Shown here: positions 3,262-62,798 of the stretch, piece by piece
Position numbering within the stretch: the first letter of the stretch is position 1
Layout of the letters: each line of letters opens with the position of its first letter
Origin: an uncultured Eubacteriales bacterium
GTDB taxonomy: Bacteria > Bacillota > Clostridia > Monoglobales > Monoglobaceae
DNA length: 64,000 bases
Reading direction: 5' to 3'
Assembly (NCBI GenBank): GCA_958352815.1
Contig: CATWQA010000002.1
Span: 21,832 to 85,831 of the forward strand
Translations under genes and position numbers: made by a program
The notes under the pieces: model-generated
What the model saw: the letters and a program-made list of their open reading frames with translations, nothing else
What the model was told of the DNA's origin: nothing
Database searches by the model: none

Positions 3262-3290
3262 CTATATACCTCCTTAAACATATATATGTA

Positions 3291-3320
3291 TATTTTTGCA
3301 AATTTCCCTTGAATATATGC
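3291..3320 (-). promoter_or_regulatory. Possible forespore (sigma-G/F-like) promoter for gpr
   Basis: On the minus strand: GCATA (3316-3320), 17 nt, CAAAAATA (3291-3298). This loosely fits GnATR-N17/18-CAtnnTA. Confidence 0.25.
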
Positions 3321-3352
3321 AAAAAGGAGACTGCTTTTGCAATCTCCTTTTT
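3321..3352 (-). terminator. Terminator for the marR-ABC operon
   Basis: AAAAAGGAGA-ctgcttttgcaa-TCTCCTTTTT, which is symmetric. Confidence 0.65.
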
Positions 3353-3373
3353 AAAAACCTGTTTGAAACTGTG

Positions 3374-3388
3374 TTTTGATAAAGGCTT
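3374..3388. repeat. Fragment of the module F terminal repeat
   Basis: ttttgataaaggctt. Confidence 0.4.
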
Positions 3389-3423
3389 ATACTGTGGAAT
3401 TATAATAACTGCAAATCATCAAG

Positions 3424-3453
3424 CTGTAGGGGGCGGCTTCCCAGACGCCCCGC
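3424..3453 (+). repeat. Solo module D terminal hairpin
   Basis: ctgtaGGGGCGgcttcccagaCGCCCCgc, identical to the arms at 60844-60871. Confidence 0.8.
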
Positions 3454-3495
3454 TAATATGGCAACTGTTTTCCAAAGTAAACATTGGTATACTAT

Positions 3496-3600
3496 GCCGC
3501 TAAAGCGGCGGGGACTGCGCGCCTCACGTGCGGTCTGCGACCGCCTGCCGTGCTTGCAATCCGCCTTTTGCAAAAGGCAGATAAACGCCTGCGGTGCAAG
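3496..3600 (+). repeat. Module B copy 1: CACGTG multi-hairpin repeat
   Basis: GCCGCtaaaGCGGC...gcgcgcctCACGTGCGGTCtgcGACCGcctgccgtgcttgcaa..GCCTTTTGCAAAAGGC... Confidence 0.85.
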
Positions 3601-3635
3601 CGCATTTCTACACTCTACACTCTACATTCTACACT
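3601..3635 (-). repeat. Module C copy 2: 4 x TGTAGAR heptad block
   Basis: The minus strand reads TAG-TGTAGAA-TGTAGAG-TGTAGAG-TGTAGAA-ATGCG. The block's leading TAG begins 6 nt after the ABC gene's TGA stop. Confidence 0.85.
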
Positions 3636-3641
3636 ACTTTA

Positions 3642-23387: not shown

Positions 23388-23706
23388 GGTGTAGGGGGCG
23401 GCTTCCCGATTAACAACAACTAAGGAATGTTATTGACATTGCCTACTTTGTATAAATAGGACTATTGCGAGCCGTCCAACTTCAAAGAAGTTGGGTCACA
23501 GACGCCCCGCATGTAAACCAATGTGATTATATGAATTTATCGGGATTTTGATTTAAAGAAAATCCCAAATCCGCATAATATAATATTTACTGTTAATATG
23601 ACGAGCGGGGCGTATAGGAATCCGCCCCCTACAACCTGAACGGTTACATATAACTAAATCCATTCGTAAAATTATACTCCACGCCTCGAGCCCAACGGGC
23701 TAGGCG
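23388..23706 (-). mobile_element. Module D copy 2: MITE-like element with long hairpin-containing inverted ends, carrying an E insertion
   Basis: Its reverse complement aligns with 60786-61008 along the whole length, apart from the 93-bp insert at 23407-23499. Confidence 0.75.
23407..23499 (+). mobile_element. Module E copy 1 (93 bp), nested in a D terminal hairpin
   Basis: It splits ggcggcttccc|(a)gacgccccgc and aligns gap-free with the other three E copies. Confidence 0.8.
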
Positions 23707-25766: not shown

Positions 25767-25891
25767 CCTTTCCCAAAAGCATTATGAAAATATAATAACA
25801 TATGACATACACTTTATCAAATAAATCTTAAAAAAATCTTAAAATTGTTTTTGCTTTATCTGCCTTTGCAAAAGGCAGAATTACATATCCC

Positions 25892-26068
25892 GGGGTTTGG
25901 GGCGGAGCCCCAATCGGTTTCCCCGAAGGGGAAAATCGACACCGCCCGGGTCTGGCTGTGACCCAACTTCTATGAGGTTGGATGGCTCACGGTATTCCTT
26001 TTAAAATATCGTAACCAATGTCAATAACAGCCCTAAGTTGTTGCCGACAGGGCGGAACCGGGCTCGGC
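25892..26068 (+). repeat. Module A copy 3, interrupted by E
   Basis: A sequence 25892-25956 plus 26050-26068. Joining the two halves reproduces cgcccgggtctggcgggcggaaccgggc as in copy 4 (1 substitution). Confidence 0.85.
25957..26049 (-). mobile_element. Module E copy 2 (93 bp), nested in the third hairpin of A
   Basis: Its reverse complement is tgtcggcaacaacttagggctgttattgacattgg...ccaacctcatagaagttgggtcaca. Confidence 0.8.
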
Positions 26069-26166
26069 AACAGATGCACCAACCGGTGCATACAAAATGA
26101 TATATTATATCACAAAATATCACAAATAATCAATTATTGCTTAATTCTGAACGGATAATTATTTGT

Positions 26167-26252
26167 GCCGCTAAAGCGGCGACGCCTGCGCGCCTCACGT
26201 GTCGCCTTCGGCGACCTGCCGTGCTTGCTTGCCGCATTGTTCCCAATGCAGC
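26167..26252 (+). repeat. Module B copy 3
   Basis: GCCGCtaaaGCGGCgacgcctgcgcgcctCACGTGTCGCCttcGGCGACctgccgtgcttgc... The second stem has a different sequence from copies 1 and 2 but still pairs. Confidence 0.8.
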
Positions 26253-26349
26253 ACAATGTCACAATTCTTATTTACCAATAATATTTTGCTGCGGGTTTTA
26301 AATAAAATTGTGCAATTAAGCCGTATTTTTAAAATTTTAGCAAAAACAC

Positions 26350-26378
26350 TTGTAACGGTATGATTTTAGTGTTATAAT
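26350..26378 (+). promoter_or_regulatory. Sigma-A type promoter for cysE-cysS-mrnC
   Basis: TTGTAA 26350-26355, 17 nt, TATAAT 26373-26378. I saw no T-box core sequence in the leader. Confidence 0.45.
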
Positions 26379-26441
26379 TGTCTGAAAGTTTTATATAATG
26401 TATAAATTGACATTATATTAATGCTGTATTGGAGTAATGTT

Positions 26442-31885: not shown

Positions 31886-31933
31886 GCAACTATATCATAT
31901 TATACGAATTTGGGCGTTTATTTAAATCATAAT

Positions 31934-32002
31934 CCCTGTTAATTTATCTTTTCACATTGGTTTGGATACGGGCGCAATAAATGGCGCCCCTACGAATTTG
32001 GT
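31934..32002 (+). repeat. Half copy (right arm) of a module D variant
   Basis: ccctgttaatttatcttttcacattggt...GGGCGCaataaatGGCGCCCctacgaatttggt parallels 60926-61000. Confidence 0.6.
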
Positions 32003-32038
32003 ATTTACATATACCCACACCCCCATTTACAAAAACAC

Positions 32039-32077
32039 AGCCCGCCCCGTTGCGCTTGCCCGACCTCCCCAAGCGCA
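32039..32077 (+). repeat. Module G copy 2 (lacks the outer right arm)
   Basis: agcccgccccgttGCGCTTGcccgacctcccCAAGCGCa. The inner stem carries a compensated T>C / A>G pair. Confidence 0.7.
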
Positions 32078-32148
32078 GATCGTTCTCCCTCCGGGAGAAA
32101 CGAGTTAGGGGACGCTGTCCCCTAAGACCCCTATTAAAGAGAGACAAC

Positions 32149-32245
32149 AATTTTGATAAAGGCTTTGGCGACATTGCCGCCGCGGCTTGGCATGGCGGAA
32201 TATGGGCTCGGCAATGGTTCAAAGGCAAAGCCTTTATCAAAATTT
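32149..32245 (-). repeat. Module F copy 1: ~96-bp long palindrome (empty site)
   Basis: aattttgataaaggctttggcgacattgccgccgcggcttggcatggcggaatatgggctcggcaatggttcaaaggcaaagcctttatcaaaattt. Confidence 0.85.
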
Positions 32246-39675: not shown

Positions 39676-40656
39676 ATGAAATCCGAAAAACTATATATAA
39701 AAATGCTCCAGAGTATCAGCTTTAGGTTATTCGCTGTTATCGCCTATATTTTGCTGTTTTTAACTCATCGCCTTTCGGCTTTGAGAATTGATGAGATTGA
39801 AATGGTTGACGTTACGGAGAAATTCAGCATGTCAGGCGTAGCCTTTGGAAAAATAAACAAGTTTTTTGACTACTTTGGGGTTGAACCGGTCTCTGAAATC
39901 ACCGTGCTTTCGGTTATGTCGATTATCATTCTGGCTTTCGGAGTGGCGGTTTTGGCAATGTCACTCTTCGGTTTTAAAAGACTGCAGATTGTCAACTTCT
40001 GCATCTCCTGTGTAGGGACTGCTCTTAACATTGCTCTCGCAATTCTGGTCACAGTATATTCTTCAAATATAAACGGCAGTGAAATTGGAGACATTATGGT
40101 TTTTGAGCCGGTGTACTTTATTCTGTGGGCGGCTCCGGCGTTATTTTTAATCGGCACCCTGTTTATCTATGCCTATGCGAAGATGCCTGCGTACACCCTG
40201 TCAGAGGGCAGGTTTTTCACCACTCTCGGCGCGGCTCTCAATCCCAAATACTTTTTCAGAACCTTTAAGAGCTATGACGATACGGAGGATCTGTTCAGAA
40301 CCAGCGTACCTCTAAAAAAGAAAAAGTACGCCTCAATCAGCAAACCCACGGCTCTGAAAAAGATTAAAAAGCGCAGCAAAAACCGCGGCGGCGAGACTGC
40401 TCCGAATTCAAAAAAGCTATCGCCCCTCGAACTGGCGTTGAATAAACGGGAGCACGCGGAGGCAATAGCCAACAAGACGGCGGATGAGATTAACCGTTCT
40501 CTGTTTAAGAAGCAGGAGCCTCAAGCCAAAAAAGCGGTACATAAGAAAAAGACAAAGAGCAAGACCAAAAAAGCAAGTCACAGCGCTCTGGATATTGCAA
40601 AACAAAGGGCTGTTCACGCCGAAGAGGTCGCAAATATAAATAATGAACTGTATTGA
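39676..40656 (+). CDS. Hypothetical polytopic membrane protein with a Lys-rich cytoplasmic tail
   Basis: 326 aa with about five TM segments. The KKKK-rich tail contains two copies of a K/R-R-x-x-HAE-x-x-AN motif. Confidence 0.55.
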   Translation: MKSEKLYIKMLQSISFRLFAVIAYILLFLTHRLSALRIDEIEMVDVTEKFSMSGVAFGKINKFFDYFGVEPVSEITVLSVMSIIILAFGVAVLAMSLFGFKRLQIVNFCISCVGTALNIALAILVTVYSSNINGSEIGDIMVFEPVYFILWAAPALFLIGTLFIYAYAKMPAYTLSEGRFFTTLGAALNPKYFFRTFKSYDDTEDLFRTSVPLKKKKYASISKPTALKKIKKRSKNRGGETAPNSKKLSPLELALNKREHAEAIANKTADEINRSLFKKQEPQAKKAVHKKKTKSKTKKASHSALDIAKQRAVHAEEVANINNELY

Positions 40657-40757
40657 TTGTGCGCCTGCTCCGCAGGCGCATTTTCTATCTTTGCAAAAGG
40701 CAGATAGCGAGCGCTTAATCCGCTTGCAGATATTTGCCGTATTTTATATAAATTTAT

Positions 40758-40945
40758 ATTTTGATAAAGGCTTTGCCTTTGAAACCATTGCCGAGCCCAT
40801 ATTCCGCCCTCGTCAGCAACAACTCAGTTTTATTATTGACATTGCCTACTTTGTACAAATTGGAATACTGCGAGCCGGCCAACTTCAAAGAAGTTGGGTC
40901 ACACCCAAGCCGCGGCGGCAATGTCGCCAAAGCCTTTATCAAAAT
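40758..40945 (+). repeat. Module F copy 2, interrupted by E
   Basis: Left half 40758-40810 and right half 40904-40945 match copy 3. The 93-bp E sits at the centre. Confidence 0.85.
40811..40903 (+). mobile_element. Module E copy 3 (93 bp), nested at the apex of F
   Basis: cgtcagcaacaactcagttttattattgacattgcctactttgtacaaattggaatactgcgagccggccaacttcaaagaagttgggtcaca. Confidence 0.8.
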
Positions 40946-40960
40946 TATAAGCGGCGATAT

Positions 40961-41060
40961 TACATATCTGGGGGTTTGGGGCGAAGCCCCAATCGGTTTC
41001 CCCGAAGGGGAAAAACCGACACCGCCCGGGTCCGGCGGGCGGAACCGGGCTAGGCGGCGG
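40961..41060 (+). repeat. Module A copy 4 (full length, with attacatat head and ggaaccgggctaggcggcgg tail)
   Basis: tacatatctgggggTTTGGGGCgaaGCCCCAAtcGGTTTCCCCgaaGGGGAAAAACCgacaCCGCCCGGgtCCGGCGGGCGGaaccgggctaggcggcgg. Confidence 0.85.
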
Positions 41061-41262
41061 TTAATTGTCAAATTTAAATATAATTATATGGGTATGATAT
41101 AAAAGTAAAATTTAAATCTTTACGTGGTCTACGAACATTGTAGGAGGTTAGCACAGGATTTAAAATACGCTCAATATCATCAATTGTATAAATCATGCAT
41201 AGCACCTCATTCCGTAAAATTTGTGAATTTCATTCTATTGTTTTTAATTGACAAATCAAATA

Positions 41263-50911: not shown

Positions 50912-51093
50912 AAAAAGTCCATATCCTTTCTGAATTTACAAATACTTTCTGTTTTGTCAAAAAATGCCGCATGATATATATAATATTAAACCACAAATAA
51001 TTGAAAAAATCAAGTAGTTTGACAATTATATTCAGATAATATTATTTTAGACATTTAAAATATTTATACAATTTTATGTCGGTGTGCCTGTTG

Positions 51094-51188
51094 CCTAGCC
51101 CGGTTCCGCCCGCCGGACCCGGGCGGTATCGGTTTTCCCCCTCGGGGAAACCGATTGGGGCTCCGCCCCAAACCCCTGTATATGTAAT
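51094..51188 (-). repeat. Module A copy 5 (full length, inverted)
   Basis: This is the reverse complement of the module A consensus, including the attacatat head. Confidence 0.85.
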
Positions 51189-51194
51189 CCCTAT

Positions 51195-51272
51195 TTTGAA
51201 AAAGGCAACAGCAAGCACGGTAGGTCGCCGCAGGCGGCACGTGAGGCGCGCAGGCATTGCCGCCTTAGCGGC
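51195..51272 (-). repeat. Module B copy 4 (inverted), bracketed by the 9-bp direct repeat ATATGTAAT
   Basis: Direct repeats at 51180-51188 and 51273-51281. The internal sequence is the reverse complement of gccgctaaggcggc..gcgcgcctcacgtgccgcctgcggcgacctaccgtgcttgc.. Confidence 0.8.
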
Positions 51273-51478
51273 ATATGTAATTATTATTTTTATTCATTGA
51301 CATTATCAAATTCATGCAAAATAAAATATTGTATGTTGCCCAACATCTTCTCAAGTGCATCAGCTCAATACATTCCTTTTCTATCCCCTCCTTCTAAAAA
51401 TCTTCGATTTTTACGAATTAATTCTTTTTTGATGCTTGTTTTTCTTTTTAAGAAAAACAAAATACTGCAAAATTATAC

Positions 51479-53219: not shown

Positions 53220-53249
53220 AAATACGAAATTTGTAAAATTTTATTTTTT

Positions 53250-53347
53250 GAAGAGTAAGAATACGAGCGTTAAGTGTTGCCGGGACGGGGAGTTGTCCGG
53301 CGAACGAAAGGCCTAAGGCTTGCGGTTCGTGTTCTGCATCCCGCTTC
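53250..53347 (+). promoter_or_regulatory. THF (tetrahydrofolate, folT-motif) riboswitch
   Basis: GAAGAGUAAGAAUACGAGCGUUAAGUGU...GCGAACGAAAGG...GCGGUUCGUGUUCUGCAUCCCGCUUC matches my recollection of the THF-I aptamer (AGAGUAG..GCGUUAAGUG..ACGA..GCGG..UGCAUCCGC). It sits directly upstream of folT-folC. Confidence 0.8.
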
Positions 53348-53433
53348 ATACAGCAAAGTTTTGATTCTGCAGGCATAACGGCAGTCTTCTTTCCTTGCTA
53401 TATGAGTGAGGTCGGAAGGAGGTCGTTATTTTT

Positions 53434-55420: not shown

Positions 55421-55470
55421 CGCCCGCCCCGTTGCGTTTGCCCGACCTCCCCAAACGCCGGGGCGGGCAA
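55421..55470 (+). repeat. Module G copy 3 (complete nested hairpin)
   Basis: cGCCCGCCCCGttGCGTTTGcccgacctcccCAAACGCCGGGGCGGGCaaac. Confidence 0.75.
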
Positions 55471-55524: not shown

Positions 55525-55658
55525 AATTTCGTAGGGGGCCACTTTTATCGGCAACAACTTAGGTTTATTATTGACATTGCTTACTTTGTGTAAATCGGAA
55601 TGATGAGAGCCGTCCAACTTCAAAGAAGTTGGGTCACAGCTGCGCCCCTACGAAATTT
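55525..55658. repeat. D-type hairpin (aatttcgtaggggg...gcgcccctacgaaattt) interrupted by E
   Basis: The inverted arms at 55525-55540 and 55643-55658 flank the E copy. Confidence 0.7.
55546..55638 (+). mobile_element. Module E copy 4 (93 bp)
   Basis: tatcggcaacaacttaggtttattattgacattgcttactttgtgtaaatcggaatgatgagagccgtccaacttcaaagaagttgggtcaca. Confidence 0.8.
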
Positions 55659-60785: not shown

Positions 60786-61008
60786 CGCCTAGCCCTGTTA
60801 TAATTTTGCGAATGGATTTTAGTTATATGTAACTGTTCAGATTGTAGGGGGCGGCTTCCCAGACGCCCCGCTTGTCATATTACACAGTAAATATCATATT
60901 ATGCGGATTTGAGATTTTCTTTAATTCAAAATACCTGTTAATTTATATAATCACATCGGTACATCTCGGGGCGTCTGGGAAGCCGCCCCCTACAACGTAA
61001 ACGGTTAC
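60786..61008 (+). mobile_element. Module D copy 3: intact MITE-like element
   Basis: The arms at 60829-60873 and 60965-61008 are inverted repeats, with 29 consecutive identical nt (ttgtagggggcggcttcccagacgccccg). An AT-rich ~90-bp core lies between them. Confidence 0.8.
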
Positions 61009-62702: not shown

Positions 62703-62798
62703 ATTTTGATAAAGGCTTTGCCTTTTAAACCATTGCCGAGCCCATATTCCGCCATACCAAGCCGCGGCGGCAATGTCGCCAAAGCCTTTATCAAAATT
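62703..62798 (+). repeat. Module F copy 3: intact long palindrome (empty site)
   Basis: attttgataaaggctttgccttttaaaccattgccgagcccatattccgccataccaagccgcggcggcaatgtcgccaaagcctttatcaaaatt. Confidence 0.85.

Follow-up and report, generated by a model that had tools for sequence, protein, structure and literature searches.

Four copies of a 93-nt sequence in a 64-kb chromosomal window

The stretch of DNA analyzed here (64 kb, hereafter the window) contains the genes for LepA, Gpr, IleRS, PNPase, LigA, CysS, transketolase, YqfD, PhoH, Era, RecO, MreBCD, PBP2, FolC, and GDH, and is ordinary chromosomal DNA of a spore-forming Clostridia bacterium. The GC skew tracks the gene strand, and the intergenic DNA is dense in GC-rich hairpin repeats of several families. 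The nearest GTDB species representatives, as judged by LigA, share at most 67% identity and are uncultured Clostridia or 'Ruminococcus' MAGs, and proteins identical to those of the window are present in many human-gut-style metagenome assemblies.

A sequence of 93 nt, referred to here as the 93-mer, occurs at 23408–23500 (+; E1), 25957–26049 (−; E2), 40811–40903 (+; E3), and 55546–55638 (+; E4). Aligned together with 20 nt of flank on each side, the four copies match without gaps over 93 nt, and the similarity ends at both borders. This confirms the four copies of the preliminary description, with E1 shifted one base to the right in the register of the family. E1 begins with GATTAA.. and ends with ..GGGTCACA; its last A is equally readable as host, and the inserted stretch relative to the empty site is 23408–23499. 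The 25-nt right-end string CCAACNTCANAGAAGTTGGGTCACA has four matches in the window, as compared to 0.00 expected by chance, and the internal string TTATTGACATTGNNTAC is found at the same four places.

E1 lies inside a B-type hairpin that begins with GTAG, the left half of which occupies 23390–23407 (+; tGTAGGGGGCGGCTTCCC) and the right half 23501–23510. An inverted partner of this hairpin (repeat family D17) is located at 23606–23633 (−), and 23390–23510, an AT-rich core, and 23606–23633 together form a REPIN-like composite of ~280 nt, which carries E1. The unsplit B-type hairpin, GTAGGGGGCGGCTTCCCAGACGCCCCGC, is present at 3426–3453 (+), which is the empty site for E1, and at 60844–60871 (+), where the inverted partner lies at 60967–60994. 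E2 is in the loop of a C-type hairpin, unsplit versions of which are found at 41022–41050 (−), the empty site for E2, and at 51096–51127 (+). The deletion of E2 had been described as restoring the intact hairpin to the base; the empty site exists, but differs from the flanks of E2 by one substitution. E3 is at the apex of an F-type 96-bp palindrome, which is unsplit at 62703–62798 (+), the empty site for E3, and again at 32149–32245. In the palindrome with E3, the three apex bases (ata/atg) are replaced, rather than being merely split.

E4 is in the loop of a D-type hairpin, which also begins with GTAG. No unsplit D-type hairpin was found within the window, and some exist in related loci. An unsplit host hairpin is therefore present in the window for E1 (B), E2 (C), and E3 (F), and in the related loci for E4. 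As described earlier, each of the four copies does lie in a different repeat family, with the qualification that the B and D hosts are related GTAG-tagged hairpins. A further hairpin, the A type, is unsplit in the window at 32040–32076 (+; repeat family D19) and 55422–55458, and is the most frequent host of the 93-mer in the related loci.

Family size and distribution

In metagenomes, the exact right-end pattern matched 40 loci, nearly all of them in assembly JABLTO01, with matches also in ERZ779888. JABLTO01 contains the species of the window: the GDH encoded on JABLTO010010563.1 is 100% identical to that of the window, and E4 on the same contig differs by a single base. Searching the loci with a profile gave 74 matches, which yielded 53 distinct full copies with usable flanks and ~15 partial ones; these counts and the host-type proportions are biased by the choice of loci through the right-end match, and the 53 copies are not independent events. 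The mean pairwise identity among the copies is 79%.

The exact right-end pattern had no matches in one genome per GTDB species and none, even when loosened, in viral contigs. Plasmids and phages gave no blastn match, and nhmmer did not find the 93-mer around ligA in the closest GTDB genomes (LigA identity of 67% or less). The 93-mer is a new family, without a match in any library searched, and is found in one uncultured human-gut Clostridia species.

Conserved and variable parts of the 93-mer

Consensus folding (alifold) of either strand yielded a single structure, a hairpin located 6 nt from the right end. In E1 this sole alifold helix, CCAACTTC-AAA-GAAGTTGG, spans 23476–23494 (+), and in the other copies it spans 25963–25981 (−), 40879–40897 (+), and 55614–55632 (+). 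Over the 53 copies its base pairs show double changes from TA to AT (11), from AT to CG (4), and from TA to CG (1). The pairing has thus been kept through double changes, which speaks for a single strand folded on itself and against a protein-binding site in duplex DNA.

No further RNA or DNA structure came out of alifold, run for both strands, or of a covariation scan over all pairs. For the left end, the hairpin candidate CAACAAC..GTTATTG is weak, AT-rich, and interrupted by a central mismatch, and it received neither alifold support nor covariation in the all-pairs scan. A pairing of the left-end CGGC with GCCG, seen in single folds, also showed no covariation and was rejected.

The most conserved blocks are GCAACAACT.AGG near the left end, the internal TTATTGACATT, which includes a perfect TTGACA, GGAAT, and the right-end hairpin together with GGGTCACA. 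The first 6–7 nt are variable, with a consensus of TRTCGG. The element ends are imperfectly inverted (TGTCGGCAAC versus TGTGACCCAAC; the right end may also be written ..GAAGTTGGGTCACA, against TGTCGGCAAC.. at the left), and the inverted hexamers CAACTT and AAGTTG lie subterminally, 9 and 7 nt from the ends, respectively, AAGTTG being an arm of the right-end hairpin. These loosely inverted ends and the position of the hairpin agree with the preliminary description. The CGTC that precedes the hairpin is a majority state only, with CATC, CGGC, CTTC, and CAAC as alternatives. A reading of the 93-mer as a CGTC-tagged REP was rejected, as the tag is not conserved and the stem is without the features of that family (PMC3733652).

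Between two genomes of 87% identity, orthologous copies differ about as strongly as their flanks do, which indicates that the conserved blocks reflect requirements for movement and not a host function. In addition, E4 varies among strains, both at the hairpin and at the left end. Taken with the flank-like divergence, these changes give no sign of selection in place.

Junctions and host hairpins

In host types A1, B, and C, taking the 93-mer out of the filled site leaves exactly the empty site, with zero duplicated bases, whereas the left junction is ~1 base off in types A2, D, D′, E, and F. The right junction always follows directly after ..GGGTCACA, and 50 of the 53 copies end with ACA-3′. 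The comparison of filled with empty sites revealed no target-site duplication, as had been claimed for the four window copies. No core dinucleotide is common to the two junctions; one is possible only in the B type.

The element begins with TG, TA, or CA (5′-TGT in 19/53 copies) and ends with CA, and the flanks end with C or T and then start with G. Rejoining the flanks gives a target dinucleotide of C|G for 25 copies and of T|G for 13, and the right flank begins with GCC in 28. The only trend in the flanks is a pyrimidine at −1 (46/53) and a G at +1 (42/53). The CC or CCC formerly noted at the end of the left flank did not generalize: over the 53 copies the last base is C in 27, T in 19, A in 5, and G in 2, and the last three bases are CTC in 13, TTT in 10, CCC in 7, TCT in 4, and others in the remainder. 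Read from the outside on its own strand, each end of the 93-mer is Y|TGT, with C|T in 18 and T|T in 15 copies at the left end and C|T in 42/53 at the right end (bottom strand).

Two readings of the junction sequences were rejected. The variable left hexamer was considered as a copy of the target (a pseudo-duplication) or as a coupling sequence in the style of Tn916, but it matches the right flank in the B type only. GTCCAAC..GTTGGGT fits the RYYYAAC/GTTRRRY pattern of integron attC sites, but the junctions are not at G|TT, and the fit is a coincidence.

By their flanks, the hosts fall into types A (with A1 and A2), B, C, D (with D and D′), E (with E and E2), and F. The 93-mer occupies at least eight unrelated kinds of hairpin, and all of the types listed also exist unsplit. 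Types B and D, which are related to each other, start with GTAG and resemble classical REPs. Every full copy lies in or beside a GC-rich hairpin. The rejoined flanks fold with a mean of −9.3 kcal/mol, as compared to −3.8 kcal/mol at random sites, and at least four base pairs span the rejoined junction in 91% of the copies, as compared to 53% of random sites. The junction is located in the loop or at the stem-loop border of the host. The orientation relative to the host hairpin is uniform within each host type, in every copy, but this is weaker evidence than it appears, because nearest relatives share host types and the number of independent insertions is far below 53.

Passive spread and strain variation

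The nearest relative of a copy lies in the same host type for 30 of the 53 copies, as compared to 9.3 ± 3.2 expected, and nearest relatives that cross host types show identities of 0.89–0.91. The composite of 281 nt around E1 recurs at a non-orthologous place (locus L037, 2710–2988) with 87% identity. In addition, A1 and C hairpins have been exchanged within one composite, and copies with mixed flanks are recombinants between nearby copies. Partial matches in loci L013, L004, and L035 are truncations, tandem joins, or palindromic recombinants beside ordinary genes. A self-BLAST of 420 kb revealed no repeated block of 1 kb or more save one orthologous pair. Much of the spread is thus passive, in composites and exchanged arrays, a point that was absent from the preliminary description; for the carriage of copies within composites in particular, we regard it as highly probable.

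Between strains that are 98–99% identical in genes, whole repeat arrays are replaced. The RR-CysE spacer occurs in three unrelated array versions, namely with E2, with another copy in a D hairpin on the opposite strand, and without a copy. The spacer upstream of a GGDEF/EAL gene has two versions, and a 280-nt array beside gpr is present or absent by strain. E1 is at the same place in 4/4 conspecific contigs, E4 is present in 10/10, and E3 is present in the single conspecific contig long enough to show it (L088), so that in every strain seen these three are fixed. For E2 and one JABLTO copy, strains differ solely by whole-array replacement. The comparison of strains for presence or absence at the four loci, which had been proposed earlier, therefore gave no clean filled-versus-empty difference: among the conspecific strains, no site differing by the 93-mer alone was found, only whole-array replacements.

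Search for a mobilizing enzyme

No transposase was found in the window, in line with the preliminary description, nor within 10 kb on either side in conspecific scaffolds. An enzyme gene with the ends of the 93-mer was absent from the window, from 10 kb on either side, and from 360 kb of loci, the DNA of the species that could be searched for enzymes amounting to only ~420 kb. The preliminary description called for a search for a longer relative that shares these termini and codes for a mobilizing enzyme; none coding for TnpA (Y1), alone or together with TnpB, was found in the window, the 10-kb flanks, the 360 kb of loci, the GTDB representatives, plasmids, phages, or viral contigs. Motif scans of the loci, which are crude, found no IS110 (DEDD-like) or TnpB ORFs.

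A Y1 transposase of the RAYT type (189 aa) is encoded at L001:658–1227, directly beside a B-type hairpin pair. The protein scores 28.7 bits against Pfam Y1_Tnp (cut-off 23) and 78.9 bits against NCBIfam REP_Tyr_transpos (cut-off 80). Its gene is the only one of this kind in the loci and lies in the related metagenome that holds the window species, and relatives named RayT are widespread in Oscillospiraceae MAGs. Since the 93-mer is without a GTAG tag, this RAYT is not an obvious partner.

Comparison with known mobile elements

The IS200/IS605 family and its PATEs, as exemplified by IS608, resemble the 93-mer in the lack of strict terminal inverted repeats and of a target duplication, in precise insertion, and in a fixed orientation, as well as in a hairpin near the right end, a short invariant tail after it, and variable first bases at the left. 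IS608 differs in that its insertions lie 3′ of an invariant TTAC tetranucleotide and in that its two ends carry similar hairpins (PMC3201880), whereas the left flank of the 93-mer is just pyrimidine-rich and its left hairpin is unsupported. The distance from hairpin to tip is 6–7 nt in the 93-mer, as compared to 19 and 10 nt in IS608. The precise insertion that characterizes IS200/IS605 was seen, to within ~1 nt at the left in types other than A1, B, and C. In contrast, no single conserved tetra- or pentanucleotide exists at the left flank, and the searched DNA held no full-length relative encoding TnpA with the same ends. The assignment to IS200/IS605 that had been suggested is not supported, owing to the missing left tetranucleotide and the unsupported left-end hairpin.

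The REP/REPIN-RAYT systems are likewise short, intergenic, hairpin-bearing repeats of high copy number, with a single Y1 gene beside its repeats, as in L001; their TnpAREP cuts loosely at C|T and shuffles the arrays (PMC3333891). There are also published cases of REP units within other palindromes (PMC3733652). The 93-mer differs from REPs in that it is longer, has no GTAG or conserved CGTC tag, and is not an inverted doublet of like units. The tag is found in the B and D hosts, which are GTAG-type REPs and of which the B-type hairpins are abutted by the RAYT-like gene; the 93-mer is their guest.

For the IS110 family, the closest parallel in form is ssr9 of ISPpu9 in Pseudomonas putida, a small non-coding unit without a transposase that occurs alone inside REPs and whose enzyme is thought to be encoded elsewhere (PMC12288879). 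In ssr9, each end carries conserved boxes, each junction shows an AG core, and a single REP serves as the target; the 93-mer shares none of these features. The insertion sequences that target REPs (IS1397/ISKpn1, ISPa11, ISPpu9/10, IS621) also insert safely into REP-like hairpins, in many cases into the loop and with a single orientation (PMC1525189), but they are autonomous and use one REP sequence each, and the members of the IS3 family duplicate 3–4 bp. Like the 93-mer, IS91 and Helitrons have neither a duplication nor terminal inverted repeats, carry a hairpin that stops a few bases short of the 3′ end, and are often truncated on the 5′ side or joined in tandem (L035, L013, and L004 in the 93-mer family). 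They differ in having a fixed flanking tetranucleotide (IS91) or an A|T host site (Helitron) and a Rep/Y2 protein, none of which was found here.

These comparisons indicate that the 93-mer works most like a non-autonomous element of the IS200/IS605 type or a REP-like unit, yet it lacks defining features of both that were tested, and the same holds for IS110/IS1111 passengers and DDE-type MITEs.

Interpretation and alternative explanations

Overall, these results indicate, with a probability of about 0.9, that the 93-mer is a mobile, nested, non-autonomous element. It parasitizes the species' own REP-like hairpin repeats, and its spread occurs in two layers, a boundary-precise entry into hairpins followed by passive carriage in composites and arrays. 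Identical boundaries in at least eight unrelated hairpins, together with similar variants across host types, require that the boundary-precise entry was repeated. An unlikely alternative dispenses with a dedicated transposition reaction and treats the 93-mer as a module of BIME-like mosaic arrays, which are shuffled and amplified by recombination of the hairpin repeats (homologous, microhomology-driven, or RAYT-mediated), the several host types deriving from a few old, possibly illegitimate events. The whole-array swaps at RR-CysE, at GGDEF/EAL, and of the 280-nt array, the chimeric flanks that arise between copies, the 281-nt composite copied as a unit, the A1/C swap, and the nearest neighbors that share a host type in 30/53 are all as expected from recombination, and in E. 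coli TnpAREP brings about BIME recombination at loosely defined C|T sites (PMC3333891). However, an exact right boundary and a near-exact left one in at least eight unrelated hairpins, with the empty sequence restored base-precisely, are hard to obtain by illegitimate recombination; similar variants (0.89–0.91 identity) cross the host types; and the compensatory changes at the right-end hairpin imply that this structure has stayed under selection because propagation needs it.

DDE transposases leave a target duplication. Conservative recombinases (serine and tyrosine enzymes as well as IS110/IS1111) leave a crossover core at both junctions, for IS110/IS1111 as described in PMC12288879 and PMC11187229. 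The precise insertion of the 93-mer without duplication or shared core argues against DDE transposases and against conservative recombinases (IS110/IS1111, serine, tyrosine). It is improbable that the 93-mer is a passenger of an IS110/IS1111-type element, in which a DEDD recombinase and a bridge/seek RNA encoded elsewhere would insert a minicircle into REP-like targets, as ISPpu9 moves ssr9. These elements do target REPs or folded sites in one orientation and without a true duplication (PMC1525189, PMC11187229), ssr9 is a selfish module of small size that occurs in REPs by itself (PMC12288879), ISPpu10 requires a target hairpin (bioRxiv 10.64898/2026.03.19.712850), and the CAACTT/AAGTTG hexamers recall the subterminal repeats with terminal extensions of IS1111, although AAGTTG is simply an arm of the right-end hairpin. 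Against this stand the junctions, which have no dinucleotide or longer core in common, and the left terminus, which varies over 6–7 nt even though both termini are required for recognition of the donor. A separate guide RNA would be needed for each of at least eight unrelated targets, whereas a single target read by a guide is the rule for the family; complementarity between element and target is absent, and a self-encoded guide was rejected, as the k-mers of 5–7 nt shared by or complementary between the element and its own flanks equaled those of shuffled pairings. The joined ends create no promoter, and no DEDD-like ORF was found in the loci by motif, which is a weak test. The IS110/IS1111 assignment offered in the preliminary description was dropped on account of the missing core, the variable left terminus, and the many targets. 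A classical DDE MITE with the ends 5′-TGT..ACA-3′, preferring REP loops like IS1397/ISKpn1 and with a short duplication that was lost or is too small to see, is more improbable still. The imperfectly inverted ends, the TGT start (19/53) and ACA end (50/53) would suit it, and IS3-family elements such as IS1397 reportedly target REP loops. However, terminal inverted repeats with a duplication of fixed length are lacking, the ends being merely loosely inverted; filled and empty sites of types A1, C, and B differ by zero duplicated bases; conservation of the left terminus is poor; one strictly kept orientation would not be expected of double-strand insertion into a near-symmetric loop; and the covariation of the hairpin speaks for a folded strand rather than for a duplex bound by protein. 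Finally, the TTGACA within TTATTGACATT, the most conserved block, and the stable hairpin at the 3′ end might be taken for parts of a functional RNA gene or cis-regulatory module (small RNA, promoter, terminator), maintained by the host in multiple copies. This is very hard to reconcile with the data: TTGACA has no partner hexamer at a sigma-70 spacing and the promoter scan was empty, no T-run follows the hairpin, the orientation relative to neighboring genes is unbiased (6 co-directional, 10 opposite; convergent spacers 10 versus 7), and orthologous copies decay like their flanks. An Rfam 15 scan of the window gave only a THF riboswitch at 53249–53348, with nothing over E3 at E values up to 10, and the 93-mer has no Rfam match at the gathering threshold or at E up to 10, so that the known RNA family raised earlier as a competing explanation is not found.

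Proposed mechanism of entry

With DDE transposases and conservative recombinases disfavored, HUH single-strand transposition remains among the known chemistries. It fits the strand-specific orientation, the hairpin near an invariant right tip combined with a variable left tip, and targets that are single-stranded only upon extrusion of a hairpin. We tentatively propose, at a little less than even odds, that the 93-mer is moved in trans by an HUH/Y1-type single-strand mechanism. In this model, the original insertions would have been made by an HUH/Y1 single-strand transposase of the IS200/IS605-RAYT superfamily, acting in trans. The top strand would be excised by a cut 3′ of the invariant right terminus ..GGGTCACA, which the enzyme would locate via the adjacent hairpin, and the excised strand would be pasted, at a loosely defined Y|G(N)C site, into loops that become single-stranded when hairpins extrude. 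The copies subsequently spread as passengers of host repeats and of larger arrays and recombined with each other.

In IS608, the right cleavage site is inside the element and the left one in the flank (PMC3201880), and E. coli TnpAREP cleaves loosely defined C|T sites near hairpins and recombines REP/BIME units (PMC3333891). The likeness of Y|TGT at both ends of the 93-mer to these C|T sites is a lead rather than a test. The absence of a fixed target tetranucleotide, of a good left hairpin, of a GTAG tag, and of an enzyme gene with these ends in the searched DNA counts against the HUH model. The mobilization on single-stranded or hairpin DNA put forward in the preliminary description is partly supported, in that the 93-mer is non-coding and non-autonomous, has entered hairpin loops of several other repeat families, inserts precisely, in one orientation, and without duplication, has a right-end hairpin, and shares its metagenome with a Y1 RAYT-like gene.

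REP repeats nested in palindromes, insertion sequences targeting REPs (PMC3733652, PMC1525189), and a small selfish module in REPs (PMC12288879) are already known; the family itself, its use of many unrelated hairpin loops, and the lack of an assignable enzyme are new. Small repeats inside other repeats usually recognize one target, whereas the 93-mer uses many unrelated hairpin loops, with base precision and without duplication, which points to the recognition of folded single-stranded DNA. A more far-reaching and rather speculative version of the HUH model, to which we give a low probability, is that the 93-mer is a hyperparasite of REP systems, that is, a structure-recognizing minimal single-strand element that would enter any extruded GC-rich hairpin loop. 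Its mobilizer would be a domesticated Y1 enzyme of the RAYT type, or a relative, with the host hairpins as normal substrates. Hairpin loops would then be a general, sequence-independent landing pad, and a 'domesticated' transposase would still drive a second, selfish family. If the mobilizer is a Y1/RAYT enzyme, the 93-mer would provide a natural test case for HUH target choice and evidence on whether 'domesticated' RAYTs still move selfish DNA, and would explain the fast strain-to-strain turnover of repeat arrays in a common uncultured gut bacterium.

As a side observation, the hairpin and 93-mer repeats break metagenome assemblies, many contigs ending in them, and create spurious ORFs.

Strain differences in the repeat arrays

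The response-regulator gene and cysE are separated by a spacer (window 25767–26420) that exists in three unrelated repeat-array versions, as seen by comparison with the loci L069, L071, L072, and L073, and the flanking genes of the strains with differing arrays are 98–99% identical. Entire arrays are exchanged in this spacer, and the borders are conserved. Upstream of the GGDEF/EAL gene (window 50990–51400 versus L094 20920–21290), the strain of the same species in metagenome JABLTO01 carries a different array, which contains a copy of the 93-mer inside an A-type hairpin. In addition, a 280-nt array between an ABC transporter gene and gpr is missing, with clean borders, from two strains (window 3262–3641 versus L097/L098 8604–8703).

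REPIN-like composites of the repeat families D8 and D17, located at window 60844–60994, 23390–23633, and 31892–31961, are built of an AT-rich core of ~95 nt, itself repeated, between two inverted B-type GTAG hairpins. The composite repeat shared by L023 (5120–5180) and L030 (5390–5440) is otherwise conserved, but one copy has an A1-type hairpin where its counterpart has a C-type hairpin; the hairpin modules are thus interchangeable.

Element junctions and derivatives

Among the 53 full copies of the 93-mer, element position 2 covaries with the last flank base, with flank C and element G paired in 18 copies and flank T and element A in 13, and the remaining combinations in 8 and 3 copies. The covariation was seen across the host hairpin types A, C, and D, as exemplified by CCC|TGTCGG at window 26049/26050 and TTT|TATCGG at 55545/55546, and could reflect either a guide-type contact or common descent.

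Two derivatives of the right end (TGTGACCCAACTTCAAAGAAGTTGGGTCACA), at L013 11076–11103 and L035 8389–8420, are perfect palindromes. One of them links the flank of one host type to that of another, and the second lies head to tail against a further full copy. A gene for a 380-aa SGNH-type hydrolase (L004 670–1812, −) draws its final two codons and its stop codon from a 5'-truncated copy at L004 635–680 (−).

A RAYT-like gene next to B-type hairpins

A single Y1 gene (L001 658–1227, +) was found across 360 kb of loci. It encodes a RAYT-like transposase of 189 aa, which scored above the cut-off for Pfam Y1_Tnp and reached 78.9 bits for NCBIfam REP_Tyr_transpos, versus a cut-off of 80. Two B-type GTAG hairpins, inverted relative to each other (L001 1224–1252 and 1348–1376), directly follow this gene in a REPtron-like layout.

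Effects on assembly and annotation

Numerous conspecific contigs stop inside or right next to repeat arrays (L087–L092, L074–L076, and P0121), and the RAYT-like gene is found mostly on contigs of ~1.3 kb. Therefore, the repeats fragment the short-read assemblies of this species. ORFs of ~100–136 codons lie wholly within arrays at window 40643–41053 (+), 40754–41071 (−), and 31944–32240 (−); such ORFs are almost certainly spurious and could misguide gene callers.

Elsewhere in the window, a THF riboswitch (53249–53348, +; Rfam RF01831, 93.7 bits) precedes folC and the gene for the S component of an ECF folate transporter.
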